From an uncultured Clostridia bacterium (GTDB lineage Bacteria; Bacillota; Clostridia; TANB77; CAG-508): a stretch of DNA of 64,000 nt. The stretch lies in the NCBI GenBank assembly GCA_944387425.1, contig CALXEV010000002.1, positions 13,673 to 77,672 on the forward strand, in the 5' to 3' direction. The first letter of the stretch is position 1, and each line of letters begins with the position of its first letter. Shown piece after piece: positions 4,009-56,532 of this stretch. Below the pieces are notes generated by a model. It had not been told where the DNA came from. It saw only the letters and a program-made list of their open reading frames with translations, and made no database searches. The position numbers were made by a program, and so were the translations under genes.

Positions 4009-4026
4009 CAGTCTTTTCTATTTTTT
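3991..4026. terminator. Bidirectional terminator between the convergent ATPase and htrA genes
   Basis: A 10-bp perfect stem, gaaaagactg (3991-4000) pairing with cagtcttttc (4009-4018), is flanked by an A-run on one side and a T-run on the other. It overlaps both gene ends. Confidence 0.75.
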
Positions 4027-5133: not shown

Positions 5134-5237
5134 ATAGATCACCAATATTAGTATGCTCACAATATAGCCAAGTTAATCTTAATAGAATAAGTTATGCAAA
5201 AATATTTCACAATAAAGAAAAATTTTCTACAAAAAAA

Positions 5238-5266
5238 TTGCAAAAAATACAAAATAATGGTACAAT
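5238..5266 (+). promoter_or_regulatory. Sigma-A type promoter for the NRPS operon
   Basis: TTGCAA (5238-5243), a 17-nt spacer and TACAAT (5261-5266), with TG at the extended -10 position. Confidence 0.6.
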
Positions 5267-5303
5267 ATGGAAGTGTAGAATATACTGAAAAAGGGTGAAA
5301 AGG

Positions 5304-31146: not shown

Positions 31147-31404
31147 TATAATATAAAATCCTATGAAAAAGCAAAGTAGATATATTTATAAAGTATCACA
31201 GAGAAAATGACATAGCTGAGAGTCATTTATACAAAATATATTGAAAATTCACTTTGGAGGACTTACCTTGAAAATAGTAGAGGTAAGCGGTTGAACCGTT
31301 AAAACTACAATGAGGTTAATAATGCTAATATAAATGTTAGCTATTAATAAAATTAGGTGGTAACACGTTTAAATTCGTCCTATATGAATAGGGCGAATTT
31401 TTTT
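31147..31404 (+). promoter_or_regulatory. T-box riboswitch leader, Phe-specific
   Basis: AGAGA- and GNUGAGAG-type Stem I elements are present (cacagagaaaatg, gctgagagtc). The specifier is UUC (31248-31250), followed by A. The T-box sequence is aaattaggtggtaacacg (31349-31366). The terminator is aattcgtcct/agggcgaatt (31372-31399) plus a T-run. Confidence 0.88.
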
Positions 31405-35943: not shown

Positions 35944-38900
35944 GTGGTAAATGCAGAAATAAGCTCAGATTATGATTATAATATAGTAGGACCAATTGTA
36001 ATAGATAAAAATAGCACATCTGATTATAGTATTTCTATGACAGTTACAAATCAAAGCGGAACAACAATTCATTCATCAAATTATAGTTTTGTAGATAAAA
36101 ATGGCAATTCTTTAGGAAGTGTAACATTAAAAGATTTAGTAGGTAGAAGCGGAGGATTTTATGTAAAAGTTGCTAGGAATTTAGCTACTACCGTAAATAT
36201 AAAAATAGAAATAACAAGTAATGTAACAAAGAAAACTTTATGGCTAAAAGGTACAGAATCATCAAATCAAATAAAATTAAGTGGAACAGGTGAAGCAGAA
36301 CAACCAATTGTAGAAATATCAGAAGCTCCTGAAACTGAAACAGTGGAATTAACTGGAACACCTGAAACAATAAATATACCTGTAACAAAATCATGGTCAG
36401 ATAGTAATAATCAAGATGGTTTAAGGTCAACTTCAGTAACGGTAACATTATATGCAAATAATGTAGCAGTAAATGGAAAAACACTAACATTAAATTCATC
36501 AAATAGCTGGAAAGGAACATTTACAGATTTACCAAAATACAAAAATGGAATAGAAATAACATACACAGTAAAGGAGAATAATCCGCCAACAGGATATACG
36601 CCAACAGTAAGTGGTTCAATAACAAATGGATTTACAGTAACAAATACACATACTCCAGAAACAATAGAAATTCCAGTAACAAAAATATGGGCAGATAATA
36701 ATAACCAAGATGGAATAAGACCACTTTCAGTAACAGTAGCTCTTTATGCAGATAATGTTGCAGTAAGTGGAAAAACATTAACTCTAAATAGTTCAAATGG
36801 ATGGAAAGGAACATTTACAGATTTACCTAAAAATAAGGATGGAAGAGAAATTGTTTATACAGTTAGAGAAAACAATCCACCAACAGGATATACGCCAACA
36901 GTAAATGGTTCAATATCAAGTGGATTTACAGTAACAAATACACATACACCTGAAACCATAAATATACCAGTAGAAAAAATATGGGAAGATAACAATAATC
37001 AAGATAGAATAAGACCAGCTTCAGTAATAGTGACATTATATGCAGATAATGAAGCAGTAGGTGGAAAATCGTTAACATTAACTTCTTCAAACAGTTGGAG
37101 AGGAACGTTTACAAATTTACCAAAATATAAAGATGGAGAAATAATAAAGTATACAGTTAAAGAAGAGATTGTGCCTTCAGAATATGAAGTTTCTGTAGAT
37201 GGCACAATAGAAGAAGGATTTACAGTAACAAATACGCATATACCAGAGACAATAGATATACCAGTAACAAAAGAATGGGTAGATAATAATAATCAAGATG
37301 GAATAAGACCAAATTCAATAACAGTAAAATTATATGCAGATGATATAGTTGTTGAAGGAAAAATATTAACATTAAATGCATCAAATGGATGGAGAGGAAC
37401 ATTTACAGATTTACCTAAATATAAAAACGGAAATGAAATAAAATATACAGTAAAAGAAGATACTGAACTATCAGGATATATACCAACAATAGATGGCTCT
37501 ATGGCAGATGGATTTATAATAACTAATACACATGCTCCAGAAACAATAGAAATTCCAGTAACAAAAGTGTGGTCAGATAGTGAAAATCAAGATGGAATAA
37601 GACCAACTTCAGTAATTGTAGCATTATATGCAGATGGAGTTGCAGTAAGTGGAAAAACAATAACTTTAAATAGCTCAAATGGTTGGAAAGGAACATTTAC
37701 AGACTTACCAAAATATAAAAATGGAAATAAAATAAAATATACAGTAAAAGAAGATGAACCACCAATAGGATATACACCATCAGTAAGCGGTTCAGCAGAA
37801 GAAGGATTTATAGTAACAAATACACATACTTCAGAAAATGTAGATATTCCGGTAGAAAAAGCATGGGTAGATAGTGAAAATCAAGATGGAATAAGACCAA
37901 CTTCAGTAATTGTAGCATTATATGCAGATGGAGTTGCAGTAAGTGGAAAAACAATAACTTTAAATAGCTCAAATGGTTGGAAAGGAACATTTACAGACTT
38001 ACCAAAATATAAAAATGGAAATAAAATAAAATATACAGTAAAAGAAGATGAACCACCAATAGGATATACACCATCAGTAAGCGGTTCAGTAGAAGAAGGA
38101 TTTACAGTAACAAATACACATGTACCAGATACAATAGAAATACCAGTAACAAAAACATGGTCAGATAATGGAGATCAAGATGGGATAAGACCAACTTCAG
38201 TAACAGTAACATTATATGCAAATGATGTAGCTGTAGAAGGAAAAACAATAACTTTAAATACAGAAAATCAATGGAAAGGAACATTTGCGGATTTACCCAA
38301 ATATCAAGATGGAAAAGAAATAGTTTATACAGTAAAAGAGGACAATCCACAAGAAGGATATACAGTAGAAATAACTGGTACAATTGAAGAAGGATTTACA
38401 GTAACAAATACGCATAAACCTGAAACTATAAGTATTCCGGTAGAGAAAGTATGGGTAGATAATGAAAATCAAGATGGAATAAGACCACCAGAAATAACAG
38501 TAACATTATATGCAAATGATATGGCTGTAGAAGGAAAAACAATAACATTAAATGCAGAAAATGAATGGAAAGGAACATTTGCGGATTTACCTAAATATGA
38601 AAGTGGAGAAGAAATAAAATATACAATAAAGGAAAATGATGTTTTATCAGGATATAAAGTAGCAATTGGTGGAACAGTAACAGATGGATTTACAATAACA
38701 AATACACATGAGACAGATGAAACTTCAATTACAGTAACAAAAGTATGGGAAGATAATAATAATCAAGATGGAATAAGACCACCAGAAATAACAGCAACAT
38801 TATATGCAAATGAAAAACCTAAGGAAACAATAACACTATCTGAAGGAAAATGGACACATACTTTTACTGGATTACCTGTAATGGAAAATGGAACCAAAAT

Positions 38901-41865
38901 AAACTATACAATTGATGAAACAGAAGTGCCAGAAGAATATGAAAAAGTAATTACAGGAGATGCAACTGTAGGGTTTATAATAACAAACAAATATACACCA
39001 GGAGAAACATCAGTAACTGTAAATAAAGCATGGGTAGACGAAAATGACAAAGATGAACTTAGACCAGATTCAGTAGAAATAGCATTATTAGCAAATGGAG
39101 ATGAAATACAGACAGCGACATTAACTGGAGATGATTGGACACATACATTCACAGGATTACCATTAAAAAAAGATGGTGTAGAAATAGAATATACAGTAGT
39201 TGAAAAAACACGAGTACCTGGATATACATCAAGTGTTACAGAAAACTCAAATAATAATTTTACAATAACTAATACACACAAAGTAGAAAAAATATTTGAC
39301 TTGGCATTAAGAAAATACATAACAAAAATAAACAATAATACATTAGAGAGTTTAAGTATACCAACAAGAATACCAAATATAGATACAAGTAGATTAAACC
39401 CAAGAGCAGATGCTGCAACAACTACAGCAACATATAAACACAAAAAGGATCCAGTATTAGTAGCAGAAGGAGATATTGTAACATATGAGATAACTATATA
39501 TAATGAAGGAGAAAAATCAGGATATGCAAGTCAAATAATAGATCAATTACCAACAGGTCTAATATATTCTCCAAGTACCACAGTATCTTCAAAAGATCCA
39601 GAAGGAAATAATAAGAATACATACAATGTGACATATGATCCAACAGAAAATAAAGTAATATTTGACATAGTAAATACTCCTGAAAATCCAGCAAAAGATT
39701 TACAACCATTTGAAACAAAACTAGATTATGAAACACTAGAAATAAAATGTAAAGTTGTATTAAAACCACAAATGGGAGAAACAAATATATTAACAAATGT
39801 AGCATGGATAAGTGGGGCATATGACACAGAAGATGATGAAGTAGCAGTAGATAGAGATTCTGAGCCAGAAAATCATCCAGATGTAAACAAAGACAACATG
39901 GAAGATTATAAAGGAAATGAAAACAACAAAGATGATTTAACAGATAAAGACTATCACTATGAAGGTGAGCAAGATGATGACGACTTTGAGAAACTATATG
40001 TTCAAATCTTTGACTTATCATTAAGAAAATTTATAGTAAAAATAAATGATGATGAATATATTAGCAAAAAAGGAGATTATATTAGAGAGCCAATAGTAGA
40101 TGTAAGCCCATTAGTAAATAAAACAGATACAACATCAATATATAATCATCCCAAAGAACCTGTAGGAGTAAAAGTTGGAGATAGAGTAACATATGTAATA
40201 AGAGTATATAACGAAGGTGAATTAGACGGATTTGCAAGTGAAGTAAAAGATTATTTGCCACCATATCTAACATTTATAGAAGATAGTGAAATAAATGAAC
40301 AATATGGATGGACAGTATCAGAAGATGGAAGAGTAGTAACAACAACATATTTAACAGATAAAGAAATAAGCAAATTCAATGGAACAGAACTTGATTATGA
40401 AGACTTACAAATAGAATGTCTAGTATCAGAAGAAGCACCAGTACATGAAAACTTGACAAACATAGCAGAAATATCAGAATATAAATATGGAGACACAATA
40501 GTACCAGAAGACATAGATTCAACGGCAGATAATATAGATGAAAACTTACCAGGAGATGAAGATTTACCAGGATATAAAGATGATGAAATAGGTCAAGACT
40601 ATGTACCAGGAAACGAAGATGATGACGACTTTGAAAAAATATATGTAAAACAATTTGATTTAGCATTAAGAAAATTCATAACACAAGTACAAGATCAAAA
40701 CATAACAAACAGAGAACCACAAGTAAAATATGAAAATGGACAAATAAGTTATGAACATACAAAAGAACCATTAACAGTACATGTAGGAGATGTAGTAACA
40801 TACACATTAAGAATATACAATGAGGGAGAAGTAGACGGATATGCAAGTGAAATAAGTGATGATATTCCTGAATTTTTGGAATTCTTACCAGAAAATGAAA
40901 CAAACATTAATTATATGTGGAAAATGTATGATGAGAATGGGCAAGAAACAGATAATGTAGAAGAAGCAAAAACAGTAAAAACAACATATCTAGCAAGAGA
41001 AAATAATAAAGATGGAGCAGAAACAAACTTGCTTGTTGCATTTAATGGAACAACACTACATTACAAAGATATAAAAATAGCATTTAGAGTAAAAGACCCA
41101 AATTCAAACACATATATAATAACAAACCATGCACAAATCTCAGAAGATACAGATGAAGACGGAAAACCAGTAGATGATATAGACTCAACACCAGACGAAT
41201 GGAATGAAGGAGAAGATGATCAAGATATTGAAAATGTAAAAGTAGAATATTTTGATTTATCACTACTAAAATTTGTATCAAAAGTAATAGTAATAGAAGA
41301 TGGAAAAGAAACAGTAACAGAAACAGGATATAATGGACATGAAGATCCAGAACCAGTTGTAAAAGTAGAATTACATAGAAATAGTCTAAATGATGTAATA
41401 GTAAAATTCGGATATGGAATAACAATAACAAATGAAGGAGACATCCCAGGATACGCAACAGAAATCACAGACTATGTACCAGAAGGATTAAGATTCGAAG
41501 CAGCAGACAACCCATTATGGACAGACGAAGGAAATAATGTAATATCAACAAAACAACTAGAAAACACACTATTACAACCAGGAGAAAGTGCAACAATAGA
41601 AGTAATATTAACATGGATAAATAGTGAAGATAACTTAAATGAAAAAACAAATACAGCAGAGATATCAGAAGATGATAATCCATATGATGTACCAGATAGA
41701 GACTCAGTACCAGATAATGAAATACCAGGAGAAGACGATATAGATATAGCAAAAGTAATATTATTAGTATCAACAGGTACACCAAAAACATATTTCATCT
41801 TAACATTAGGACTATTAACAATAGTATTAGTTGGAGTAATCTTAATTAAGAAATTTGTTCTATAG
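35944..41865 (+). CDS. Giant cell-surface adhesin: the Gln half of the thioester domain, 10 CnaB-type repeats, 4 DUF11-like repeats and a C-terminal TM anchor
   Basis: The reading frame is open from 35620 and there encodes IAVQKAAVWYFTN, a TQxA(I/V)W-like thioester Gln motif. Ten units of about 97 aa follow (PETIxIPVxKxWxDxxNQDGIRP...TFTDLPKY...YTVKE...GFTVTNTH). Four units of about 215 aa then start FDL(A/S)LRKF and carry GDxVTYxIxIYNEGE...DxLP. The tail is VSTGTPKTYFILTLGLLTIVLVGVILIKKFVL. Confidence 0.9.
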   Translation: MVNAEISSDYDYNIVGPIVIDKNSTSDYSISMTVTNQSGTTIHSSNYSFVDKNGNSLGSVTLKDLVGRSGGFYVKVARNLATTVNIKIEITSNVTKKTLWLKGTESSNQIKLSGTGEAEQPIVEISEAPETETVELTGTPETINIPVTKSWSDSNNQDGLRSTSVTVTLYANNVAVNGKTLTLNSSNSWKGTFTDLPKYKNGIEITYTVKENNPPTGYTPTVSGSITNGFTVTNTHTPETIEIPVTKIWADNNNQDGIRPLSVTVALYADNVAVSGKTLTLNSSNGWKGTFTDLPKNKDGREIVYTVRENNPPTGYTPTVNGSISSGFTVTNTHTPETINIPVEKIWEDNNNQDRIRPASVIVTLYADNEAVGGKSLTLTSSNSWRGTFTNLPKYKDGEIIKYTVKEEIVPSEYEVSVDGTIEEGFTVTNTHIPETIDIPVTKEWVDNNNQDGIRPNSITVKLYADDIVVEGKILTLNASNGWRGTFTDLPKYKNGNEIKYTVKEDTELSGYIPTIDGSMADGFIITNTHAPETIEIPVTKVWSDSENQDGIRPTSVIVALYADGVAVSGKTITLNSSNGWKGTFTDLPKYKNGNKIKYTVKEDEPPIGYTPSVSGSAEEGFIVTNTHTSENVDIPVEKAWVDSENQDGIRPTSVIVALYADGVAVSGKTITLNSSNGWKGTFTDLPKYKNGNKIKYTVKEDEPPIGYTPSVSGSVEEGFTVTNTHVPDTIEIPVTKTWSDNGDQDGIRPTSVTVTLYANDVAVEGKTITLNTENQWKGTFADLPKYQDGKEIVYTVKEDNPQEGYTVEITGTIEEGFTVTNTHKPETISIPVEKVWVDNENQDGIRPPEITVTLYANDMAVEGKTITLNAENEWKGTFADLPKYESGEEIKYTIKENDVLSGYKVAIGGTVTDGFTITNTHETDETSITVTKVWEDNNNQDGIRPPEITATLYANEKPKETITLSEGKWTHTFTGLPVMENGTKINYTIDETEVPEEYEKVITGDATVGFIITNKYTPGETSVTVNKAWVDENDKDELRPDSVEIALLANGDEIQTATLTGDDWTHTFTGLPLKKDGVEIEYTVVEKTRVPGYTSSVTENSNNNFTITNTHKVEKIFDLALRKYITKINNNTLESLSIPTRIPNIDTSRLNPRADAATTTATYKHKKDPVLVAEGDIVTYEITIYNEGEKSGYASQIIDQLPTGLIYSPSTTVSSKDPEGNNKNTYNVTYDPTENKVIFDIVNTPENPAKDLQPFETKLDYETLEIKCKVVLKPQMGETNILTNVAWISGAYDTEDDEVAVDRDSEPENHPDVNKDNMEDYKGNENNKDDLTDKDYHYEGEQDDDDFEKLYVQIFDLSLRKFIVKINDDEYISKKGDYIREPIVDVSPLVNKTDTTSIYNHPKEPVGVKVGDRVTYVIRVYNEGELDGFASEVKDYLPPYLTFIEDSEINEQYGWTVSEDGRVVTTTYLTDKEISKFNGTELDYEDLQIECLVSEEAPVHENLTNIAEISEYKYGDTIVPEDIDSTADNIDENLPGDEDLPGYKDDEIGQDYVPGNEDDDDFEKIYVKQFDLALRKFITQVQDQNITNREPQVKYENGQISYEHTKEPLTVHVGDVVTYTLRIYNEGEVDGYASEISDDIPEFLEFLPENETNINYMWKMYDENGQETDNVEEAKTVKTTYLARENNKDGAETNLLVAFNGTTLHYKDIKIAFRVKDPNSNTYIITNHAQISEDTDEDGKPVDDIDSTPDEWNEGEDDQDIENVKVEYFDLSLLKFVSKVIVIEDGKETVTETGYNGHEDPEPVVKVELHRNSLNDVIVKFGYGITITNEGDIPGYATEITDYVPEGLRFEAADNPLWTDEGNNVISTKQLENTLLQPGESATIEVILTWINSEDNLNEKTNTAEISEDDNPYDVPDRDSVPDNEIPGEDDIDIAKVILLVSTGTPKTYFILTLGLLTIVLVGVILIKKFVL
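36358..39290 (+). repeat. Tandem coding repeat array of 10 CnaB-type units with a period of about 291-294 nt
   Basis: Repeated PETI(E/N)IPV(T/E)K...TNTH blocks. Units 5 and 6 are identical over 220 nt (37576-37795 matches 37870-38089). Confidence 0.9.
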
Positions 41866-41877
41866 AAAATAAAGAAT

Positions 41878-41914
41878 TTGTCAAGAGGGGCGGTCCTTCT
41901 TGACAAATTTTTTT
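41878..41914 (+). terminator. Module-1 repeat copy acting as the adhesin terminator
   Basis: ttgtcaagaggggcggtccttcttgacaa (41878-41906) has perfect 8-bp outer arms and is followed by attttttt. Confidence 0.8.
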
Positions 41915-41941
41915 GACAAATTATGTTAAGCATGATATAAT
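41913..41941 (+). promoter_or_regulatory. Consensus sigma-A promoter with extended -10 for the 42004-45804 gene pair
   Basis: TTGACA (41913-41918), a 17-nt spacer ending in TGa, and TATAAT (41936-41941). Confidence 0.7.
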
Positions 41942-42003
41942 ATGGAATATTAAAAGAGAGGGGAAAATTTTGCACAAATAGCAAAATTAGAAAAGTGGTT
42001 TAG

Positions 42004-43278
42004 ATGGATGAAAGAAGATTAAGAAGTAGTATATTAGTCAAAAAATATGAAGACAAAGATGGAGTAAAAAAAGTCTTACGAAATAAATATGGTACAGTTA
42101 ATAATGCTATACAAATGTTTGAAAATGGTGAAATTACAGAGTTTGAAATAGAAAATTTATTAGAAAAAATGATAGATGTTGTTATTTCATCTAAAGACTT
42201 AACGAGAAGAGAAATTGCAAGATATTTAATGATATATCATGCACTTATTGATGGTGGATTTTATAATGATGTTGGACATAAATATCAATATGATACTAAC
42301 CAAGAAAGATTTGTAAATATAGACGAATTACAAAGAAGAATAAACGAATTAAAACCAATTGCAAAAAGTGTAATAGAACTTAGATATGGAATATCATCTG
42401 GGAAATTAAACACTCAACCTGAAACTAAGGAAGCATTAGGCCTTTCAACAGCATCAGTATCTGTAATAGAAAATGAAGCTTTAAAAAAATTACGTTTTAG
42501 TTTACCCAAAGGAATTGTTGAAGATGCTTATAGTGAAGATATAATGTATGAACTAGAAGAATTAATAAAACAACCTGATGATTATTTTGTGGAATATAGT
42601 GAGCCAGATAAGTCATTTTATAAAATGTATCCAATTTGGGATTTGAATCTATGTATAGGTACATATAATGCATTAAAAAGAGCTAATGTAAATAATTTGG
42701 CAGATTTATCAACAATGAGTGAAGAAGAATTAATGCAAATTAAAATGATAGGAAAATTAAAGATAAAAGAAATTAGAGAAAAGCTAACTTTATATGGGTT
42801 AGATATTAGATATGGTACTGAACAAGTTGAATCAAATAGCACAAGTAGAATTAAAAGGATTAGTTCAGAAAAAATTCAAAAAATAAGAAAATCTGCAAAA
42901 AGAAAATTACAATTGATGGAAGCTTATGGAAGAGGAAAGGAAGAATGTCTCGATATTACAGAAATGTTTGACCCTGAGTCAGTAATACCTGCAACAATTC
43001 ATGAACTAGAAGATTTACAACCAGAAGAATATGAACTTGCAATAAGGTATATAGAATATAGAAAACAATTAGAGCTAGGCGATACTGAGGTAGGAGATGA
43101 GACTTCATTAGGTCCTCAGACATCAAAGCTAGAAACATTTATAAAAGCAAAGAAATCTAAAAAGCAAAGAGTTGATGAATTAAAAGAATTAATAAAAGCT
43201 CAAGATGCCAAGATTGAAGCTTTAACACAATTATTAATAGAAAATGGAATAAAAATACCAAAAGAATTACAAAAATAA
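42004..43278 (+). CDS. Chimeric protein with a sigma-70 region-4-like HTH, an RNA polymerase alpha C-terminal-domain-like HhH domain and a coiled-coil tail
   Basis: SVIELRYGISSGKLNTQPETKEALGLSTASVSVIENEALKKLR matches the region 4.2 pattern (xRxGLxxxxxxTxxExxxxxGxSxxxVxxIExxALxKLR). IWDLNLCIGTYNALKRANVNNLADLSTMSEEELMQIKMIGKLKIKEIREKLTLYGL aligns with alpha-CTD (LDLSVRSYNCLKRAGI...L...EEL..I.N.GKKSL.EI...L...GL). Confidence 0.7.
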   Translation: MDERRLRSSILVKKYEDKDGVKKVLRNKYGTVNNAIQMFENGEITEFEIENLLEKMIDVVISSKDLTRREIARYLMIYHALIDGGFYNDVGHKYQYDTNQERFVNIDELQRRINELKPIAKSVIELRYGISSGKLNTQPETKEALGLSTASVSVIENEALKKLRFSLPKGIVEDAYSEDIMYELEELIKQPDDYFVEYSEPDKSFYKMYPIWDLNLCIGTYNALKRANVNNLADLSTMSEEELMQIKMIGKLKIKEIREKLTLYGLDIRYGTEQVESNSTSRIKRISSEKIQKIRKSAKRKLQLMEAYGRGKEECLDITEMFDPESVIPATIHELEDLQPEEYELAIRYIEYRKQLELGDTEVGDETSLGPQTSKLETFIKAKKSKKQRVDELKELIKAQDAKIEALTQLLIENGIKIPKELQK

Positions 43279-43302
43279 TATAAGAAATATAAGGGGGTTC
43301 AA

Positions 43303-45804
43303 ATGATTAGTAAATTTTATTTAGATAAAGAAAAAGATATAATTGTTAATTTGAAAAAAACTAACCAAGATGAAATTACATATGTGTTAGAAACACCAAA
43401 TCATAATACAGGAAACTTAATTACAAATCTAGCAAAATTATGCGGACTTAAAACAATAAAAAACGAAAATGATATGAAAATAATAACAGGAAAAATTCCT
43501 GCAAGTATAAATGGTGACAATGAAGAAGTATATATATTTAGATTAGGTGGAATAAAAATAGCAAATATTTATGAAGATAGAGTAGAAATAAAAGCAAAAA
43601 TTCCAGCCATAAATAAAACACTTATGTCTCAAACTAAAAATTATAAACTCCCAATAGAAAAAACAATTGTAAAAACATATATTTTAAAAAAATCAAAATT
43701 TAGAACAGACTTACATACCCATATGAATGCAAATTTATCTCCTGATTGTCTGATTGCATTAGGAATTTCAGAACAAGTAAGATATCCATTATATTATATT
43801 AAAAAATTAAATCTTAAATTAAGTTCAAAACAAGAAAAAAATATATATGAACAACGAAAAAATGTTGAAAAACAATTTGAAAATAGTCCATTACAAGGCA
43901 AATATTTAACAAGAAAAATAGATGATAATACTTTTATAAACTTTGCAGACTTCATATTAAATAATATAGAAAATGCACAATATAATATAGAAAAAATAAG
44001 AACAAGTTTAGCAATATTAAAAGATGGACAAGCAGTTTTTACTAATCTTGAAAAATGCTATATTTACAGATATGTATTTGCAAAAGGAATTCCTTCAACA
44101 GAAAAAATAGAACTAACAGAAGAATTAATAAAAACTATTCCAGAAGCAGACATTGTAAAAATGGTATTAAAAATGCAAGATGACAAAAAAGAAGGTAGTC
44201 CATATAAAAACAATACTTTAAGACAGAACAAACTATTGTGGGTTGCAAGAGAATATAAAAAGCAAGGAATAAAATATGTAGAAATTGCAGATACAGATTT
44301 AGCAAAATTAGGAGAACCAGCAGTAAAATTATTACAAGAAGTTCATGATATTTTTCCACAGATAGAAAAAGAAACAGGAGTAAAAATTAGATTTTTATTA
44401 GCAATAAGAAGAATTCCGTTAACAATTATAAAAGACCAAAAAACAAGTAGTACATATTTAAAAGACAATATAAATGTTTTAAAAGCAGTTGCCAAAAGTC
44501 CATATGTTGTAGGTAGTGATTTTATTGGAGAAGAAATCAACGATATTTCAGACTTACAACCAGTAATTCAAAAAATTGTAAAATATGTAAATCAAGAAGA
44601 TAAAGACTTCACAATAAGAATTCACGCAGGAGAAAATGACAGTTTAAGAGATAATGTAAGAAAATCAATTATGTGTGTGAAAGAAGCACTTGTAGATGGA
44701 CAACCAATGCCTAGATGTAGAATAGGACATGGATTATATTCAGAAAACTTAAACAGTGAAGAAGGAAAAGAATTATTAGACTTAATGAAAGAAACTGGTG
44801 TTGTAATTGAATTTCAATTAACATCAAATGTAAGATTAAATAATATTAGTGATTTATCAAATCATCCAATCAAGACATTTTTGAAAAATGGAATTAAATG
44901 TGTACAAGGAACAGATGGTTGTGGATTTTATGGTTCAGATACATTTGATGAACAATTAGCACTTCAAAATTTACTAGGTTTAACAAATAATGATTTTGAA
45001 AAAATGAGAAAAGTAGAAGATGAGATAATTGCTCATAGTGAAAATTTTTTTTTAGAAAAAAGCAAAAAGTTTGAACAATTTTTGAATGGAAGAAGCATAA
45101 AAGAAGCAATACTTGAATTAGAAGAGAAAAATATAAAAGAAACTGAAGGTCAAGAAGAATTAAGAATAACAAATAATATAGAAACAGAAAAAGAATTAAG
45201 CCAAAAAATTAAGCCATTACCAACAGATAAAGTTCCAGTAATAATTGCAGGTGGAAGCTTTAATACAAAAGGAAGAGAAACTGTTGTATCTGAAAATGGA
45301 ATTAAAATATTAAGACAATTAATAAAAAATGTTGATAGTGAAAACGCGTACTTTGTAATAGGTCATAAAATGCAAGGATATGAAAAGGCAATTGTAGACA
45401 TTTCAAAAGAGATGAATAAGAATTTTGAAATAGATGCAATAGTTCCAAAAGTAGTTACTCAAAAAGTAAAAAATAGGTTATTAGATGAAGAAGTAGATGG
45501 AATTTGTATTTCACTTGAAACAGAAGAATTAGGAATTTATAAAAGTTTTAATTATGAAATTTTTGAAAGAAGAAAATCAGTTGTAATTGCTTTCGATGGA
45601 AATTCCCCTGTTCTAAATCTTGTGCAAGAAGCCAAAAATGGAAAAGGAAAATCAAAAATATATGTAAATAAAGAAAATACATTATTACGAGAAAAGGCTG
45701 ATACACTTGAGGGATATGTTGTTCCTTTTGAAATGCAAGATAATCAAGATAATATAGTTAGCAAAATATTTGAGGATAATCCAGAAATTTTAAAACATAA
45801 TTAA
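43303..45804 (+). CDS. Large adenosine/AMP-deaminase-fold protein with an N-terminal extension and a C-terminal LOG/SLOG-like Rossmann domain
   Basis: The RBS is aaggggg. All metal and catalytic motifs are present: DLHTHMN (HxH, about 43710), IRIHAGEN (HAGE, about 44622), RIGHGLY, and QGTDGCGFYG (about 44911). The C-terminal roughly 190 aa read PVIIAGGSF...FVIGHKMQGYEKA...AIVPK...ERRKSVVIAFDGNSPVLNLVQEA. Confidence 0.75.
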   Translation: MISKFYLDKEKDIIVNLKKTNQDEITYVLETPNHNTGNLITNLAKLCGLKTIKNENDMKIITGKIPASINGDNEEVYIFRLGGIKIANIYEDRVEIKAKIPAINKTLMSQTKNYKLPIEKTIVKTYILKKSKFRTDLHTHMNANLSPDCLIALGISEQVRYPLYYIKKLNLKLSSKQEKNIYEQRKNVEKQFENSPLQGKYLTRKIDDNTFINFADFILNNIENAQYNIEKIRTSLAILKDGQAVFTNLEKCYIYRYVFAKGIPSTEKIELTEELIKTIPEADIVKMVLKMQDDKKEGSPYKNNTLRQNKLLWVAREYKKQGIKYVEIADTDLAKLGEPAVKLLQEVHDIFPQIEKETGVKIRFLLAIRRIPLTIIKDQKTSSTYLKDNINVLKAVAKSPYVVGSDFIGEEINDISDLQPVIQKIVKYVNQEDKDFTIRIHAGENDSLRDNVRKSIMCVKEALVDGQPMPRCRIGHGLYSENLNSEEGKELLDLMKETGVVIEFQLTSNVRLNNISDLSNHPIKTFLKNGIKCVQGTDGCGFYGSDTFDEQLALQNLLGLTNNDFEKMRKVEDEIIAHSENFFLEKSKKFEQFLNGRSIKEAILELEEKNIKETEGQEELRITNNIETEKELSQKIKPLPTDKVPVIIAGGSFNTKGRETVVSENGIKILRQLIKNVDSENAYFVIGHKMQGYEKAIVDISKEMNKNFEIDAIVPKVVTQKVKNRLLDEEVDGICISLETEELGIYKSFNYEIFERRKSVVIAFDGNSPVLNLVQEAKNGKGKSKIYVNKENTLLREKADTLEGYVVPFEMQDNQDNIVSKIFEDNPEILKHN

Positions 45805-45850
45805 ACTAAAAAATTAACAAATTTACTCAAAACACTTGACAAATGTGAAA

Positions 45851-45890
45851 AAAAGGTGTAAAGTATATTGGCATTACACCTTTTGTTGTT
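45851..45890 (+). terminator. Terminator after the deaminase gene
   Basis: An 11-bp stem, aaaaggtgtaa (45851-45861) pairing with ttacacctttt (45874-45884), followed by a T-rich tail. Confidence 0.7.
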
Positions 45891-45937
45891 TATAATAACG
45901 AAAATAAGTAATGCAACTAAAGAAAGAGGTAGTAATT

Positions 45938-46285
45938 ATGGAAAAGAAAGTAGAAATAAGTATGTTATGGCAAATTTATGGAAAGCTATTAACAGAAAAA
46001 CAGTATGAGTACATTGATTATTACTATAATGAAGACTTATCTTTATCAGAAATTGCAGAAAATGAAGGCATTACAAGACAAGCTGTAAGAGACATCATCA
46101 AGAAAGGAGAGAGAAAACTTTTCGAATACGAAGAAAAGCTATTGTTTATGAGAAAGACAATTAATCAAGAAAAACAAATACAACATATTTTACTTAATTT
46201 AAACAAAATTCAAAAAGACTCATCAGATAAACAAGTAACAAATATATTGGAAGAAGTTAAAAAAGAATTAAATTGTTTAGTCTAA
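45938..46285 (+). CDS. ylxM: YlxM/UPF0122 putative HTH protein of the SRP operon
   Basis: LLTEKQYEYIDYYYNEDLSLSEIAENEGITRQAVRDIIKKGERKL is typical of YlxM. The gene lies immediately upstream of ffh. ATG 45938 follows the RBS agaggt. Confidence 0.88.
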   Translation: MEKKVEISMLWQIYGKLLTEKQYEYIDYYYNEDLSLSEIAENEGITRQAVRDIIKKGERKLFEYEEKLLFMRKTINQEKQIQHILLNLNKIQKDSSDKQVTNILEEVKKELNCLV

Positions 46286-46305
46286 ACAAAAGATAGGAGG
46301 CAAGT

Positions 46306-47658
46306 ATGGCGTTTGAAGGATTATCATCAAGACTACAAGAAATAACAAGAAAAATCAGAGGAAAAGCAAGAATAACAGAATCAGATTTAAAAGAAATGCT
46401 AAGAGAAGTTAAACTTGCTTTGCTTGAAGCTGATGTAAACTATAAAATAGTTAAAGAATTTATAGCAAATATACAAGAAAAAGCCTTGGGTCAAGATGTA
46501 ATGAAATCATTAACACCAGGACAACAAGTCATAAAAATCGTAAAGGACGAAATGGTAGAATTACTAGGAGGAACTGAAAGTAAAATAAACTTTACTCCAA
46601 ATCCACCAACAATAATAATGTTAGTTGGATTACAAGGTTCTGGAAAAACAACTACAGCAGGAAAACTTGCTAATCTTTTACGAAAACAAGGTAAAAAGCC
46701 ATTACTAGTAGCATGTGATATATATAGACCAGCTGCTATAAAACAATTACAAGTAGTAGGAGCTCAGTTAAATATACCAGTATATGCTAATGAAACATCA
46801 AAAGATGTTGTGCATATTGCAAAACAAGCAATGAATGTTGCAATATCAAAATTAAATGATGTAGTAATACTAGATACAGCAGGAAGATTACACATTGATG
46901 ATGAATTAATGCAAGAACTAAAAAATGTAAAAGCAAGTGTAAAACCACATGAAATTTTGTTGGTAGTAGACTCAATGACTGGTCAAGATGCAGTAAATGT
47001 TGCACAAACTTTCAATGATGAAGTAGGAATTGATGGAGTAATATTAACAAAATTGGATGGAGATACACGTGGTGGTGCAGCACTTTCAGTAAAGAAAGTC
47101 ACTGGAAAACCAATAAAATTTGCAGCAACAGGTGAAAAGTTAAGCGATATTGAAGTATTTAATCCAGAAAGAATGACATCTAGAATACTTGGAATGGGTG
47201 ATGTGTTATCAATAATCGAAAAAGCCGAAGAAGCAATCACAGAGGAAGAAGCAGAAAAATTAGAAAAACAACTTAGAAAAAATGAATTAGACTTAGATGA
47301 TTATTTAGCACAAATCAGACAAGTAAAAAAGATGGGTTCACTATCATCAATATTAAAAATGTTACCAGGAATGAACAAAATAAAAGACTTAAATGTAGAT
47401 GAAAAAGAATTTGATAAAATTGAAGCAATTATTTGTTCAATGACTGTAGAAGAAAAAAGAAATACAAAATTATTAAATGGTAGTAGAAGATTACGTATTG
47501 CAAAAGGTAGTGGAACTACAGTTCAAGATGTTAACAAATTTATGAAATCATTTGAAATGACACAAAAAATGATGAAACAAATGAAATCAAATAAAGGTGG
47601 CATGAAAAACATGTTCAAAAACATGAACATGAATGATTTGAAAAATTTTAAGATGTAG
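46306..47658 (+). CDS. ffh: Signal recognition particle protein Ffh
   Basis: NG domain motifs are present (GLQGSGKTTTAGKLA, DTAGR, TKLDGDTRGGAALS), with a Met-rich M domain at the C-terminus. Confidence 0.96.
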   Translation: MAFEGLSSRLQEITRKIRGKARITESDLKEMLREVKLALLEADVNYKIVKEFIANIQEKALGQDVMKSLTPGQQVIKIVKDEMVELLGGTESKINFTPNPPTIIMLVGLQGSGKTTTAGKLANLLRKQGKKPLLVACDIYRPAAIKQLQVVGAQLNIPVYANETSKDVVHIAKQAMNVAISKLNDVVILDTAGRLHIDDELMQELKNVKASVKPHEILLVVDSMTGQDAVNVAQTFNDEVGIDGVILTKLDGDTRGGAALSVKKVTGKPIKFAATGEKLSDIEVFNPERMTSRILGMGDVLSIIEKAEEAITEEEAEKLEKQLRKNELDLDDYLAQIRQVKKMGSLSSILKMLPGMNKIKDLNVDEKEFDKIEAIICSMTVEEKRNTKLLNGSRRLRIAKGSGTTVQDVNKFMKSFEMTQKMMKQMKSNKGGMKNMFKNMNMNDLKNFKM

Positions 47659-47705
47659 TTATTAATTTTTTAAACTTATATAGAATAAAACGGAGGTGAA
47701 TTGTA

Positions 47706-47936
47706 ATGGTAAAAATAAGATTACAAAGAGAGGGAAAGAAAAAAGCTCCATTCTATCATATAGTAGTAGCTGATTCAAGATCTCCAAGAGATGGAAAAAT
47801 AATAGAACAAATTGGAACATATGATCCAATGACAGAACCATCAACAATAGTTCTAAACAAAGAAAAATTAGAACAATGGATAAAAAATGGTGCACAACCT
47901 ACAGATACAGTTAAAGCATTAATCAAAAATGCTTAG
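47706..47936 (+). CDS. rpsP: 30S ribosomal protein S16
   Basis: The N-terminus [31 protein letters not shown] is present and the gene sits in the conserved operon position. Confidence 0.95.
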
Positions 47937-47948
47937 TTGGAGGAAAAT

Positions 47949-48182
47949 ATGAAAGAGGTTTTAGAAACTATTATTAAAAACTTAGTCGACACTCCAGAAG
48001 CTGTTGATATAAAAGAAGTTGAAGGAGAAAAAAACATAATCTTTGAAGTAAAAGTTGCTGAAAAAGATTTTGGAAAAATAATTGGTAGACAAGGAAAAAT
48101 TGCACAATCTATAAGAACAGTAATGAAATCCGTTGCAAATAGAAAAGACAAAAAAGTTACTGTAGAATTTATAGAACAATAA
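47949..48182 (+). CDS. KH-domain RNA-binding protein (YlqC family)
   Basis: The KH GxxG motif is present (IIGRQGKIAQSIRTV) and the gene lies between rpsP and rimM. ATG 47949 follows the RBS ggagg. Confidence 0.88.
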   Translation: MKEVLETIIKNLVDTPEAVDIKEVEGEKNIIFEVKVAEKDFGKIIGRQGKIAQSIRTVMKSVANRKDKKVTVEFIEQ

Positions 48183-48211
48183 AAGTTATACCATGAAAGG
48201 AATGGTAGAAC

Positions 48212-48718
48212 ATGCAAAAAAGGCTAGAAGTTGGTCAAATTGTTAATACATTTGGTATAAAAGGAGAAGTTAAAGTAATGCCTTTTACAGATGATATAAC
48301 AAGATTTGACGACCTAGAAAAAGTATATGTTAAAACTAAAAAAGAAGAAAAACTATATAAAATTCAAAATGTGAGATATCACAAAAATATGGTATTAATC
48401 AAATTTGAAAATATAGAAACACCAGAACAAGCTGAATTGCTAAGAAATGCTTTTCTAGAAATAGACAGAGAAGATGCAATACCACTAGAAGAAGGAACAT
48501 ATTATATAGCTGATTTAATTGGTATGGAAGTATATTCAGATGATGGAAATAAGCTAGGAATAGTAGAAGACATCTATAATACTGGAGCAAATGACATATA
48601 TGTAGTAAAAAATGATTTAGGAAAACAAATTTTATTACCAGGAATCAAAGAGGTAATAAAAGAAGTTAACTTAGATACAGAAAAAATTACAGTACATCTT
48701 ATACCTGGATTGATTTAA
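48212..48718 (+). CDS. rimM: 16S rRNA processing protein RimM
   Basis: The N-terminal VGQIVNTFGIKGEVKV and a PRC-barrel C-terminus are present, in the conserved operon position. Confidence 0.92.
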   Translation: MQKRLEVGQIVNTFGIKGEVKVMPFTDDITRFDDLEKVYVKTKKEEKLYKIQNVRYHKNMVLIKFENIETPEQAELLRNAFLEIDREDAIPLEEGTYYIADLIGMEVYSDDGNKLGIVEDIYNTGANDIYVVKNDLGKQILLPGIKEVIKEVNLDTEKITVHLIPGLI

Positions 48719-52592: not shown

Positions 52593-52617
52593 GGACGGTC
52601 CTTACTGGCAATTTTTT
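52583..52617 (+). terminator. Module-1 repeat copy acting as the LonC terminator, overlapping the last codons and stop of the gene
   Basis: ttgtcagtagggacggtccttactggcaa (52583-52611) is followed by tttttt. The TAG stop (52590-52592) lies inside the left arm. Confidence 0.85.
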
Positions 52618-52715
52618 ATTATAATATTTTATTTAATATACACAATAAAAAATATCTTTAAGTCTTTAACTTAAAGATATCAGAGTGTTGACAAAGTATA
52701 TAAAAATTCGAGTGC

Positions 52716-52744
52716 TTGAATTTTTATGTATATTATGATAGAAT
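52716..52744 (+). promoter_or_regulatory. Promoter for ORF 52829
   Basis: TTGAAT (52716-52721), a 17-nt spacer ending in TGa, and TAGAAT (52739-52744). Confidence 0.55.
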
Positions 52745-52828
52745 AAATTTAATTCGTTTAATCCCCAAAGAGAATCATTCAAAATCTCAGAGAGGATCCC
52801 TCACAAGTAAATACAAGGAGGATTATCT

Positions 52829-53224
52829 ATGATAAGCAAAGCTCAACAAGTACGGATGAGAAGGACTAATGCATTCAAGAGAACTTTATTCTTAAAATTG
52901 GATGAAATCTTTGACTGGATATTGGATATTATAAACAAAAAAACAGATGAAAGAGATTACCATAAATTAATATTGTACATTGACGAATATAGGTATCTTA
53001 GAGTTTTGGACAACGAAAAAAAATGCGAAGATAATTATGGATGCTATGATTTGAGAAAAATTCTTAGCGAATATGACGAAGAATTTTTTGTTGAAAAATT
53101 GAAAAAGAAAATAGAAGATGAAGAAGGATATAAAGTGAAATTGAAAGAAGAATGTTTAAATGGTGCTAAGAAGCCATCTACCGTTATTATTGTTGAAGTT
53201 AGCGTAGATTTTAGCTTAGGTTAA
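52829..53224 (+). CDS. Hypothetical 131-aa protein
   Basis: A strong RBS (aaggagg) lies 7 nt upstream. I recognise no motif. Confidence 0.55.
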   Translation: MISKAQQVRMRRTNAFKRTLFLKLDEIFDWILDIINKKTDERDYHKLILYIDEYRYLRVLDNEKKCEDNYGCYDLRKILSEYDEEFFVEKLKKKIEDEEGYKVKLKEECLNGAKKPSTVIIVEVSVDFSLG

Positions 53225-53411
53225 AAGCTAAGGTACCCAGTTTTCGTAAGAAAGCTAGGTATTTACTTTTTTCTAAATGAAATATTAATTTTATCTATTA
53301 TTTTGAAAATATTAAAAATTAGCCTATCACAAGAATATTATTTGCAAAATTCGACAAAAGTGTTATAATTAATTTGTCCGAGGAATACATTAGTATAGTA
53401 AGGAGGGCATT

Positions 53412-53840
53412 ATGATTTACACTGAGCAAACCAAAAAAGCCATGATAATTGCATATAATGCTCATCATGGACAAGTCGACAAATCTGGAGTACCATATAT
53501 TTTCCATCCAATCCATGTAGCAGAACAAATGGAAACTGAAGAAGAATGTATTGTTGCACTTCTACATGATACTGTAGAAGACACAAACATAACTTTTGAA
53601 GTTTTGGAAAAAGAATTTTCTGCTACTGTCATTGAAGCATTAAAACTTCTCACACATGACGAGTCAATTGATTATTTTGACTATGTCAGAAAGTTGAAAA
53701 ATAACCCAATTGCCAAAAAAGTAAAACTTGCAGACTTATATCACAATAGTGATATAACTAGGATGGAAAATCCTACAGAAAAGGACTGGAAGCGCAAAGA
53801 AAAATATCATAAAGCAATACTGATTTTGCTTGAAGAATAG
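53412..53840 (+). CDS. Small HD-domain protein of the RelA/SpoT hydrolase type (candidate small alarmone hydrolase)
   Basis: AYNAHHGQVDKSGVPYIFHPIHVAE and ALLHDTVEDT are the (p)ppGpp-hydrolase HD signature. The protein is 142 aa with no synthetase domain. The RBS is aaggaggg. Confidence 0.8.
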   Translation: MIYTEQTKKAMIIAYNAHHGQVDKSGVPYIFHPIHVAEQMETEEECIVALLHDTVEDTNITFEVLEKEFSATVIEALKLLTHDESIDYFDYVRKLKNNPIAKKVKLADLYHNSDITRMENPTEKDWKRKEKYHKAILILLEE

Positions 53841-53846
53841 CCCTGC

Positions 53847-53883
53847 ACCAAAAGAGAGACTGTAATAGTCTCTCTTTTGGTGT
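53847..53883. other. Perfect 16-bp hairpin after the HD gene, with no U-tail
   Basis: caccaaaagagagact (53847-53862) pairs with agtctctcttttggtg (53868-53883) around the loop gtaat. No T-run follows on either strand. Confidence 0.6.
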
Positions 53884-53890
53884 AAAAAAG

Positions 53891-53919
53891 TTGAAAAAAG
53901 TATAAAAATATATTAAAAT
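53891..53919 (+). promoter_or_regulatory. Putative ogg promoter
   Basis: TTGAAA (53891-53896), a 17-nt spacer and TAAAAT (53914-53919). The predicted transcription start falls at the edge of the repeat copy at 53924. Confidence 0.45.
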
Positions 53920-53923
53920 AAAT

Positions 53924-53952
53924 TTGTCACAAGGGACGTTCCTTAGTGGCAA
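53924..53952 (+). repeat. Module-1 hairpin repeat copy in the ogg 5' region
   Basis: ttgtcacaagggacgttccttagtggcaa is followed by aaaaaa rather than a T-run. Confidence 0.85.
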
Positions 53953-53986
53953 AAAACGATTAATTTAATTGCATAAGGAGGATACA

Positions 53987-54868
53987 ATGCAAGAACAAGA
54001 ATATAAATTAGAAAATATAGATTCATTTGAATTAGCAGATATATTTGAATGTGGACAGTGTTTTAGATGGAATAAACAGGAAGATGGAAGTTACACAGGA
54101 ATATTCAAAAGAAATGTAATTAATGTAAAAAAAGAAAATTGTCATCAAGGTACGTCCCTAGTGACAATAAAAGGAATATGTGATGGTAATATAAAAGATG
54201 TAGTAGAAGATTATTTTGACTTAAATAGAAACTATGAAGAAATAAAGGAAAAGTTATCAAAAATAGATGATAATGTAAAAACAAGTATAGAATATGGAAA
54301 AGGAATAAGAATTTTAAATCAAGATTTATGGGAAATGATTATATCTTATATAATTTCTGCAAACAATAATATACCACGTATAAAAGGAATTATAGAAAGA
54401 TTATCAAAAGCATATGGTGATGAAATAGAATGGAATGGAAAAAAATACTACACTTTTCCTACACCTGAGCAATTGAAAGATGTAACAGTAGAGGATTACA
54501 GAAAATTAGGAACAGGTTTTAGAGATATCCGCTTATATGAAACAGTGCATATGATTTTAGATAAAAAGGTTGATTTAGAACAATTACAAAATGAACCAGA
54601 TACAAACAAAGTTAGAGAACAACTTTTAACACTTTCTGGAGTTGGACCTAAAGTGGCTGATTGTATTCTATTATTCTCAACATTAAAACGTTTTGAAGTT
54701 TTTCCAATAGATGTATGGGTACGTAGAGTAATGAATGAGCTATATATAAAAAATGAAGATGAAACAAAAGTTAATAAAAAGCAAATTGAAAAGCTTGCAC
54801 ATGAAAAGTTCGGAAATCTTGCAGGAATTGCACAACAATATTTGTTTTATTGGAAAAGAGAAGCATAA
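53987..54868 (+). CDS. ogg: 8-oxoguanine DNA glycosylase / AP lyase (Ogg; HhH-GPD superfamily)
   Basis: The OGG N-domain motif FECGQCFRW is present. The HhH-GPD region reads LLTLSGVGPKVADCILLF (catalytic Lys) and FPIDVWVRR (Asp). ATG 53987 follows the RBS aaggagg. Confidence 0.88.
   Translation: MQEQEYKLENIDSFELADIFECGQCFRWNKQEDGSYTGIFKRNVINVKKENCHQGTSLVTIKGICDGNIKDVVEDYFDLNRNYEEIKEKLSKIDDNVKTSIEYGKGIRILNQDLWEMIISYIISANNNIPRIKGIIERLSKAYGDEIEWNGKKYYTFPTPEQLKDVTVEDYRKLGTGFRDIRLYETVHMILDKKVDLEQLQNEPDTNKVREQLLTLSGVGPKVADCILLFSTLKRFEVFPIDVWVRRVMNELYIKNEDETKVNKKQIEKLAHEKFGNLAGIAQQYLFYWKREA
54139..54167 (-). repeat. Module-1 repeat copy located in frame inside the ogg coding sequence
   Basis: ttgtcatcaaggtacgtccctagtgacaa shares the core caaggtacgtccc and the palindromic ttgtca/tgacaa arms with the intergenic copies. 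It encodes CHQGTSLVT. Confidence 0.8.
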
Positions 54869-54924
54869 CAGAAAGTATAATTTATAAAATATTACTAAAA
54901 ACACAAAGTATACTGAATAAAATC

Positions 54925-54953
54925 TTGACATTTTGTTCAGTATACTTTATAAT
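54925..54953 (+). promoter_or_regulatory. Consensus sigma-A promoter for the ATPase gene
   Basis: TTGACA (54925-54930), a 17-nt spacer and TATAAT (54948-54953). Confidence 0.7.
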
Positions 54954-54972
54954 ATATATAAGAGGTGATAAA

Positions 54973-56487: not shown

Positions 56488-56492
56488 AAAAA

Positions 56493-56532
56493 TTGTCAAC
56501 AGAAACGGTTCACTTTACCGTCCTGTTGACAA
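56493..56532. terminator. Bidirectional terminator between the ATPase and leuS genes; an extended variant of the module-1 repeat
   Basis: ttgtcaacag...ctgttgacaa forms a 10-bp outer stem and acggt/accgt forms an inner stem. The hairpin is flanked by aaaaaa and tttttt. On the minus strand the core caggacggt resembles cagggacggtcc. Confidence 0.8.

Follow-up and report, generated by a model that had tools for sequence, protein, structure and literature searches.

A three-domain adenosine deaminase-like protein of uncultured gut Clostridia, probably resident at its locus, and a lineage-restricted sigma region 4/alpha-CTD gene directly upstream

In a 64,000-nucleotide stretch of DNA from an uncultured Clostridia bacterium (GenBank assembly GCA_944387425.1, contig CALXEV010000002.1; hereafter the window), we examined two adjacent genes that lie between an adhesin gene and the ylxM-ffh-rpsP block. 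Gene 2, the second of the pair, encodes a large protein with an adenosine deaminase (ADA) domain and a SLOG/LSDAT-like Rossmann domain, and gene 1 encodes a protein that joins sigma-70 region 4 to an RNA polymerase alpha C-terminal domain (alpha-CTD). A preliminary description had taken the two for an autonomous accessory cassette inserted beside core genes, as is typical of defense or conflict systems. On our analysis, gene 2 is probably a resident purine deaminase, likely under the control of a ligand, ahead of which a young transcription-factor-like gene has been inserted. In the mechanism that we propose, gene 2 would be a three-domain enzyme kept by vertical descent throughout a large clade of gut Clostridia known from uncultured members, with a conserved promoter of its own in the ancestral state. 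Gene 1 would then have been inserted, in the window species and its nearest kin, between the ancestral promoter region and the deaminase start codon, displacing the conserved promoter, so that the deaminase would now be translated from the bicistronic mRNA of one consensus promoter. We observe directly which domains the two proteins contain, how the genes are conserved and arranged, the selection that acts on them and the lack of gene 1 in other loci.

The two genes are distributed very differently. In a scan of one genome per species, in which relatives of gene 2 were recognized by clade-specific N-terminal motifs, we found gene 2 in at least 554 species-representative genomes, all of them metagenome-assembled genomes of uncultured gut Clostridia. 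Homologues run to thousands, and the ADA-SLOG family as a whole comprises 858 clusters at 50% identity, with other lineages besides the gut Clostridia included. Gene 1, by contrast, is present in none of 80 species-representative ADA loci, and a search of 5.8 billion proteins gave just three close clusters for it (99, 87 and 78% identity), beyond which we found no comparable protein. Wherever gene 1 occurs, it lies directly upstream of gene 2 at a spacing of 24 nt. These counts contradict the view that the pair was inserted as one cassette. Two sets of candidate gene 1 relatives were rejected: none accompanies the ADA homologues of other lineages in the 80 species loci, and two small open reading frames (ORFs) upstream of ADA in locus L002, considered as degraded copies, are unrelated by comparison.

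The surroundings of gene 2 in related loci (designated by L numbers) are consistent with long residence. In the nearest relatives, which share 77–87% identity over ADA, the gene order is pheS-pheT-[variable]-ADA-ylxM-ffh-rpsP, and pheS-pheT-ADA-ylxM-ffh is found without gene 1 in L001, L002, L010, L013, L014, L087 and L095. The slot between pheT and ADA contains the two small ORFs in L002 and MscS, AAA_5 and DUF2201 genes in L001, and in the window it is filled by the adhesin gene and gene 1; the inserts of the relatives are unrelated to gene 1. The preliminary description had proposed looking in related genomes for a junction free of the cassette. What those genomes hold at the pheT/ylxM-ffh junction is gene 2 itself, with nothing between it and pheT in L013 and L095. 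In species farther removed, ADA occupies different housekeeping neighborhoods, most commonly with genes for a histidine kinase, a nonribosomal peptide synthetase (NRPS)-like protein, an acyl-CoA ligase, HtrA, an M23 peptidase and a deaminase of the cytidine deaminase (CDA) fold. A homologous block of HtrA, NRPS-like and kinase genes is present in the window in inverted orientation, 30 kb from gene 2, which speaks for a rearrangement of the chromosome and not for arrival by horizontal transfer.

Within the species, the pair is fixed. All ten neighborhood variants with identical Ffh carry adhesin-gene 1-ADA-ylxM with fixed spacing, and the expectation of accessory presence and absence within a species is not borne out. 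Of these genes, only the adhesin gene differs in length among the ten variants. This Cna_B-repeat protein measures 1114, 1317, 1973, 2144, 2173 or 2242 aa among L098–L107, differences that suggest repeat-number variation between strains. The strain-variable spot within the species is downstream of the Lon protease gene and not at the gene 1-ADA pair; there, as L100, L105 and L107 illustrate, some contigs carry an insert encoding 118-aa and 482-aa proteins and others AAA_14/DUF4143. The best species-representative match to the window ADA protein is 84% identical and metagenome contigs contain many copies at 99–100%; it seems that the set of representative genomes either lacks the window's species or contains it in a poor assembly. 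The preliminary description had itself named a conserved position in the lineage and a lack of co-inheritance as observations that would speak against it, and these are largely what we observe.

Selection on gene 2 resembles that on its core neighbors. We obtained dN/dS values of 0.09–0.15 for ADA, 0.12–0.16 for pheT and 0.06–0.09 for ffh, and gene 2 evolves like pheT. All three of its domains fall at 0.07–0.17, and the C-terminal domain, at 0.09–0.17, is constrained like the rest of the protein.

Gene 2 is predicted to encode an N-terminal alpha/beta domain of unassigned type, an ADA TIM barrel with insertions and a C-terminal SLOG/LSDAT-like Rossmann domain. All three are visible in an AlphaFold 2 (AF2) model with a mean predicted local distance difference test score (pLDDT) of 81 and a predicted template modeling score (pTM) of 0.79. 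The barrel matches Pfam A_deaminase (PF00962) at 5.1e-20, with 72.3 bits against a cut-off of 27, and alignments of 34 and 40 family members show no variation at residues D136, H138, H140, E327, H441, E444, H476 and D538. Gene 2 shares with canonical Add (PF00962/TIGR01430) the same fold, the HxH, HAGE and GHG motifs and the zinc-binding Asp, and its best matches, in sequence and in structure, are the Add enzymes of Salmonella, Vibrio, Plasmodium and mouse. Because every metal-binding and catalytic residue is retained, we infer that the substrate is an adenine compound, and gene 2 most likely deaminates adenosine, adenine, AMP or ATP to the hypoxanthine/inosine form. The earlier remark that neither gene has an obvious housekeeping role was too strong for a gene with an intact adenosine deaminase catalytic set and pheT-like evolution. 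Despite these similarities, gene 2 differs from canonical Add in its length of 833 aa as opposed to ~330–370 aa, in barrel insertions at residues ~150–310, in its two added domains, and in the second Asp of the TDD motif, which is Gly (TDG) in gene 2 and invariantly so in the family.

The C-terminal domain is best recognized in relatives of gene 2. There, the Pfam model LSDAT_prok ("SLOG in TRPM") recognizes 14 of 18 C-domains, with E values down to 3e-5, and the C-domain profile matches the SLOG loop of TRPM2/8 (TGGTNxGVxK) at an E value of 0.02. In the window clade, the glycine loops are degenerate, reading IGHKMQGYEK and AFDGNSP in place of the TGGTNxGVEK and GGGxxV of relatives. The SLOG/LSDAT-type domain and the N-terminal domain are most likely nucleotide-binding regulatory or oligomerization modules. 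A literature search for ADA-SLOG/LSDAT fusions returned nothing specific, and the databases that contain ADA-SLOG proteins gave no functional name.

Several observations weigh against a resident, regulated purine deaminase with a young regulator. Gene 2 scores 55.7 bits with the TIGR01430 equivalog, far below its cut-off of 216.55, and at 833 aa, with two domains besides the deaminase, it is unlike a typical salvage enzyme. Its combination of a sensor-type Rossmann domain with ADA appears to follow the logic of defense effectors, and 30 of 34 family members match the PADLOC model CARF5--CARF_ADA, the best at 3.8e-20, over the linker and ADA part. Pfam LSDAT_prok matches none of four C-domains of the window clade directly, and the SLOG assignment for that clade is drawn from alignment to relatives. 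The putative core status of gene 2 is judged from counts, synteny and selection; co-transcription of the two genes is predicted from their spacing and from promoter and terminator calls, and the role proposed for gene 1 derives from two domain matches only.

Some of these points would suit an immune effector related to Cad1 or RADAR, a reading that we consider unlikely. Here, gene 2 would be a ligand-gated ATP/dATP deaminase whose SLOG domain senses an infection-derived nucleotide, such as a derivative of ADP-ribose (ADPR) or cyclic ADP-ribose (cADPR), and whose flood of ITP/dITP arrests growth, with gene 1 as its regulator or sensor. There are precedents for each half of such a protein: Cad1, a type III CRISPR-Cas effector of the CARF-ADA kind, turns ATP into ITP, and RADAR deaminates (d)ATP (PMC11645235), while SLOG domains include non-catalytic nucleotide sensors such as ThsA (PMC11204291, PMC9503650). 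Like Cad1, gene 2 pairs a Rossmann-type nucleotide-binding domain with an ADA barrel whose metal ligands are intact. Foldseek searches with the whole gene 2 model match the ADA barrel only, and recover Cad1 structures (E ~1e-6) as well as canonical ADA (E ~1e-9). The slot upstream of ADA is moreover a hotspot for variable cargo. Several differences speak against this reading. Gene 2 has no CARF domain by Pfam; its Rossmann domain stands at the C-terminus and belongs to the SLOG/LSDAT type, and there is an additional N-terminal domain. The PADLOC match of family members spans profile positions 215–565 of 605, with no CARF portion, and the window protein itself is unmatched. In sequence, the family profile resembles canonical Add (58 bits) more than solved Cad1 (E 0.2–1). 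Gene 2 has no cas genes beside it, and it is vertically conserved across the whole clade, with its presence in so many species, its pheT-like dN/dS and its fixation within the species all at odds with an immune cassette. The eroded glycine loops of the SLOG domain in the window clade also count against a ligand sensor of this kind.

Comparison with RADAR and Thoeris leads in the same direction. Gene 2 resembles RdrB in being a large (~800 aa) protein with an adenosine deaminase domain. It differs in that the window has no RdrA-type ATPase next to it, PADLOC gave neither an RdrA nor an RdrB match for the window genes or the family members, and gene 2 lies outside any defense island. The AAA_5 and DUF2201 pair upstream of ADA in L001 was considered as an RdrA-like candidate and rejected, as AAA_5 gives only a weak, generic DolB match. 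ThsA (SIR2-SLOG, Thoeris) and the MHR1/2 region of TRPM2 resemble gene 2 through the SLOG/LSDAT matches of its relatives' C-domains, and offer the precedent of a SLOG sensor gating a fused effector (PMC11204291). The effector in gene 2 is a deaminase in lieu of SIR2 or an ion channel, there is no ThsB/TIR partner, and the degenerate loops of the window clade are those that would bind the ligand.

The wider context of gene 2 gives no support to a Cad1-like defense role, which we hold to be improbable. PADLOC, NCBIfam and PHROGs assigned neither window protein to a defense family, and we found no CRISPR-cas, CBASS, Thoeris or RdrA genes near ADA in the window or in ~90 related loci. Searches of IMG/VR, GenBank phages and plasmids returned no relatives of either gene, only rpoA or add fragments. 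The character of a defense or conflict cassette accordingly finds no backing in defense, phage or plasmid links, and the neighbors are housekeeping genes.

A bifunctional enzyme is a further alternative, though a rather remote one. In this case, the SLOG domain would be catalytic, freeing adenine from AMP in the manner of the LOG/PpnN nucleotide N-glycosidases, and the amidohydrolase would be an adenine deaminase, with AMP converted overall to hypoxanthine and ribose-5-phosphate. LOG-clade SLOG domains are known to cleave the N-glycosidic bond of AMP-type substrates (PMC9503650), the TGGTNxGVEK and GGGxxVxDMIQRAHN motifs of relatives parallel LOG motifs, and adenine deaminase structures are also among the Foldseek matches of gene 2. 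In 18 of 80 species, a CDA-fold (TadA/GuaD-like) deaminase of 153 aa is encoded on the same strand directly upstream of ADA-SLOG, a hint at purine-base metabolism; it scores highest with TadA, at 82 bits and short of the cut-off, carries an HAE..PCxxC motif, and is absent from the window. This deaminase could be a functional partner of ADA, but its adjacency is limited to a minority of species and may also be plain synteny. The C-domain, moreover, matches the LSDAT (TRPM-type) branch, a known ligand binder, and not the LOG branch, and both glycine motifs are eroded in the window clade.

Gene 1 encodes an all-helical protein with a charged coiled-coil tail. Two domains are each recognized singly at significant scores: sigma-70 region 4 (Pfam Sigma70_r4, 2.8e-7) and alpha-CTD (Pfam RNA_pol_A_CTD, 5e-13). 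The part preceding region 4 has weak sigma region-3-like similarity in NCBIfam. Region 4 is the only sigma region detected by Pfam, which finds no sigma region 2, and the NCBIfam matches, to sigma factors and to rpoA, are partial; those to the sigma models take in only the C-terminal portion of each model, at scores well under the cut-offs. The closest solved structure is that of the Bacillus subtilis alpha-CTD (3gfk, 1.4e-8), and PHROGs yield one weak partial match to a phage sigma-factor family. Compared with a sigma factor and an alpha subunit, gene 1 fuses a domain of each to its coiled-coil tail, without sigma region 2 and without the alpha N-terminal domain. Gene 1 cannot be a true sigma factor; its domain content most likely makes it a regulator of transcription that binds DNA or RNA polymerase. 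The possibility that its sigma-4 part is a duplicate of the neighboring ylxM was rejected, since gene 1 is unrelated to YlxM. Locus L089 contains a 122-aa ORF with a weak alpha-CTD match, ~5 kb upstream of the distant ADA-SLOG homologue P0305, and we detected no similarity between this ORF and gene 1. Directly upstream of P0305 is a gene for a type II/III-like DNA methyltransferase.

Constraint on gene 1 is weaker than that on its neighbors, with a dN/dS of 0.22–0.33 whichever pair or segment is compared. A chimeric ORF without function and in decay, a rearrangement fossil of sigma factor and rpoA pieces carried in the deaminase leader, would be consistent with its near-orphan distribution, its lack of sigma region 2 and its faster divergence (78% amino-acid identity with the diverged relative in L004, versus 96% for ADA and 100% for Ffh). 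An AF2 model built from four sequences has a pLDDT of 41 and is unusable, which also fits such a fossil. The equivalent of alpha-CTD residue R265, at what we take to be its position in the 3gfk alignment, is Gly in gene 1, a further point in favor of decay. The same dN/dS values, however, speak against a fossil, as do the perfect promoter ahead of gene 1, its fixation in the ten strain variants, and a frame of exactly 424 aa that is unbroken in four variants, the most divergent at 78% identity. Given this frame and these values, we regard gene 1 as a real gene under looser constraint, and a fossil as very improbable. Equally far-fetched is a bolder combination, in which ADA-SLOG would be a large, unrecognized and clade-fixed family of single-polypeptide, ligand-gated adenine-nucleotide deaminases that follow the Cad1 logic with SLOG/LSDAT for CARF; in the window's species, the enzyme would also be coupled to gene 1, an RNA-polymerase-mimicking decoy that senses phage hijackers of the host polymerase.

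The resident deaminase and its putative regulator plausibly form one transcription unit, whose features are collected in the table below. Directly after the adhesin stop codon lies a hairpin of −23.5 kcal/mol (z = −5.75; 0 of 200 shuffles as good) with a T-run at its end. Its 3′ arm adjoins a predicted sigma-A promoter that agrees with the consensus at 12 of 12 positions, has the upstream TG in addition, and is the sole perfect site in the region. The region contains 36 promoter-like sites versus 31.2 ± 5.7 in shuffled sequences, which is not above chance; what stands out is how good this single site is, not how many there are. The scan placed no promoter-like site in the final ~700 nt of gene 1, and a strong ribosome-binding site stands in the 24-nt gap ahead of gene 2. 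The hairpin at the end of the unit has an 11-bp stem with 2 more pairs, followed by TTTTGTTGTTT; the 61-nt segment that includes it folds at −15.9 kcal/mol (z = −3.8). Its intergenic region is the least conserved stretch relative to L004, with 42 gap columns. A promoter-like site for ylxM-ffh, matching at 11 of 12 positions, overlaps its 3′ arm, and the block downstream comprises ylxM, ffh, rpsP, khpA, rimM, trmD and rplS. A rule-based terminator scan called neither hairpin, and both are terminator-like by fold, not by the consensus of that scan. An Rfam search of the unit and of the regions upstream of ADA in relatives revealed no riboswitch or leader, and its sole match was the T-box leader of pheS (RF00230, 114.5 bits), which is kept in L002 and L013.

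Much of the preliminary description of this anatomy holds. Both hairpins, the perfect promoter, the gap and the strong ribosome-binding site are present as described. Its autonomous cassette stands in so far as the pair has the layout of one transcription unit, with promotion and termination of its own, and in so far as gene 1 is accessory and lineage-restricted, but fails in that the pair is not co-inherited. The suggestion that the upstream hairpin is repeat-derived has modest support. The strict motif GTCAA..GGGNCGG..TTGAC is found at intergenic sites in 6 copies in L001, 4 in L009 and 2 in L087, whereas the window has a single strict copy, within the hairpin, and a looser TTGTCAAC..GTTGACAA hairpin elsewhere. 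In relatives, this family of short palindromic intergenic repeats sits at gene boundaries, often beside the ADA gene.

Table. Coordinates of the features described, in the window and in related loci.
Feature	Locus	Position	Strand	Remarks
HtrA, NRPS-like C-A-T-R and histidine kinase genes	window	4018-14610	−, +, +	inverted block
Tyrosine recombinase gene	window	15929-16873		Phage_integrase family, 1.7e-29
T-box leader of pheS	window	31154-31385		Rfam RF00230
Adhesin gene	window	35944-41865		Cna_B repeats; stop codon 41863-41865
Terminator-like hairpin past adhesin gene	window	41871-41913	+	by fold energy; 3′ arm adjoins promoter
Strict repeat copy in this hairpin	window	41880-41904		GTCAA..GGGNCGG..TTGAC
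Promoter TTGACA-17-TGnTATAAT	window	41913-41941	+	sigma-A type; predicted driver of genes 1 and 2
Gene 1	window	42004-43278	+	424-aa ORF
Gene 1, sigma-70 region 4	window	42340-42495	+	residues 113-164
Gene 1, alpha-CTD	window	42622-42789	+	residues 207-262
Ribosome-binding site AAGGGGG of gene 2	window	43291-43297	+	5 nt before ATG
Gene 2	window	43303-45804	+	833-aa ORF
Gene 2, N-terminal alpha/beta domain	window	43303-43704	+	residues 1-134
Gene 2, ADA TIM barrel	window	43705-45102	+	residues 135-600
Gene 2, SLOG/LSDAT-like domain	window	45223-45801	+	residues 641-833
Terminator-like hairpin and T-rich tail, unit end	window	45851-45890	+	by fold energy; hairpin 45851-45884
Promoter-like site TTGGCA-17-TATAAT for ylxM-ffh	window	45868-45896	+	overlaps hairpin 3′ arm
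ylxM	window	45938-46285	+	NCBIfam YlxM 1.3e-25; downstream boundary of unit
Strain-variable spot downstream of lon	window	~52600-56500
Looser hairpin TTGTCAAC..GTTGACAA	window	56495-56530
CTTTACATAAnTATTGC element	L001	9890-9935
CTTTACATAAnTATTGC element	L002	9878-9920
CTTTACATAAnTATTGC element	L013	9914-9957		also in others
GTCAA..GGGNCGG..TTGAC repeats	L001	4507, 5625, 9780, 9949, 12496, 12633
ADA gene, called in two parts	L004	2571-5071		44 aa + 774 aa
122-aa ORF with weak alpha-CTD match	L089	2693-3061
Type II/III-like DNA methyltransferase gene	L089	6837-7817		directly upstream of P0305
CDA-fold deaminase gene upstream of ADA-SLOG	L015-L017, L023, L029, L032, L033, L035, L037, L039, L040, L045, L053, L058, L064, L068, L077, L086

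Relatives without gene 1 suggest where its promoter may have come from. In these, the ADA promoter region consists of a conserved CTTTACATAAnTATTGC, 17 nt, and then TGATATAAT, and this arrangement is kept even where ADA occupies other genomic contexts. The CTTTACATAAnTATTGC element is immediately upstream of, and overlaps, the −35 of the ADA promoter and may be an operator or an UP-like element. The CTTTACATAAnTATTGC..TGATATAAT motif is absent from the window. The gene 1 promoter and the conserved ADA promoter are ~60% identical over 43 nt and have in common an extended −10 and two TTxACA hexamers ~13 nt apart. Homology between the window and L004 begins at 41908, exactly at the promoter, and the genes upstream differ. 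From these alignments, we infer that gene 1 entered the leader of ADA at a point past the ancestral promoter, although consensus promoter elements can also converge.

Nucleotide identity between the window and L004 over 41908-48522 changes in steps, from ~86% in gene 1 and ~95% in ADA to 98–100% in ylxM-ffh-rpsP and ~76% in khpA-rimM, a mosaic that points to recent homologous recombination between diverged lineages. In L004, ADA is called in two parts, indicating an N-terminal frameshift or an assembly error; the remainder of the protein is 96% identical to that of the window. Elsewhere in the window, a tyrosine recombinase is encoded between a response regulator-HD gene and Tex; with no obvious mobile-element genes nearby, it may be XerC/D-like.

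The apparent inserted defense cassette would on this account be a resident gene with a recent insertion upstream. That a resident gene and a later insertion can together look like a cassette makes operon-like anatomy alone weak evidence for a conflict system. Gene 1 would represent a rare operon capture, in which a young, selected gene made of RNA-polymerase-interaction domains took over the transcription of an older one; the sigma-4/alpha-CTD chimera itself is a lineage-specific curiosity. ADA-SLOG, in turn, is a large, uncharacterized variant of a known enzyme class. Whether its role is metabolic or immune is worth knowing, because Cad1 and RADAR showed that regulated ATP deamination can arrest growth.

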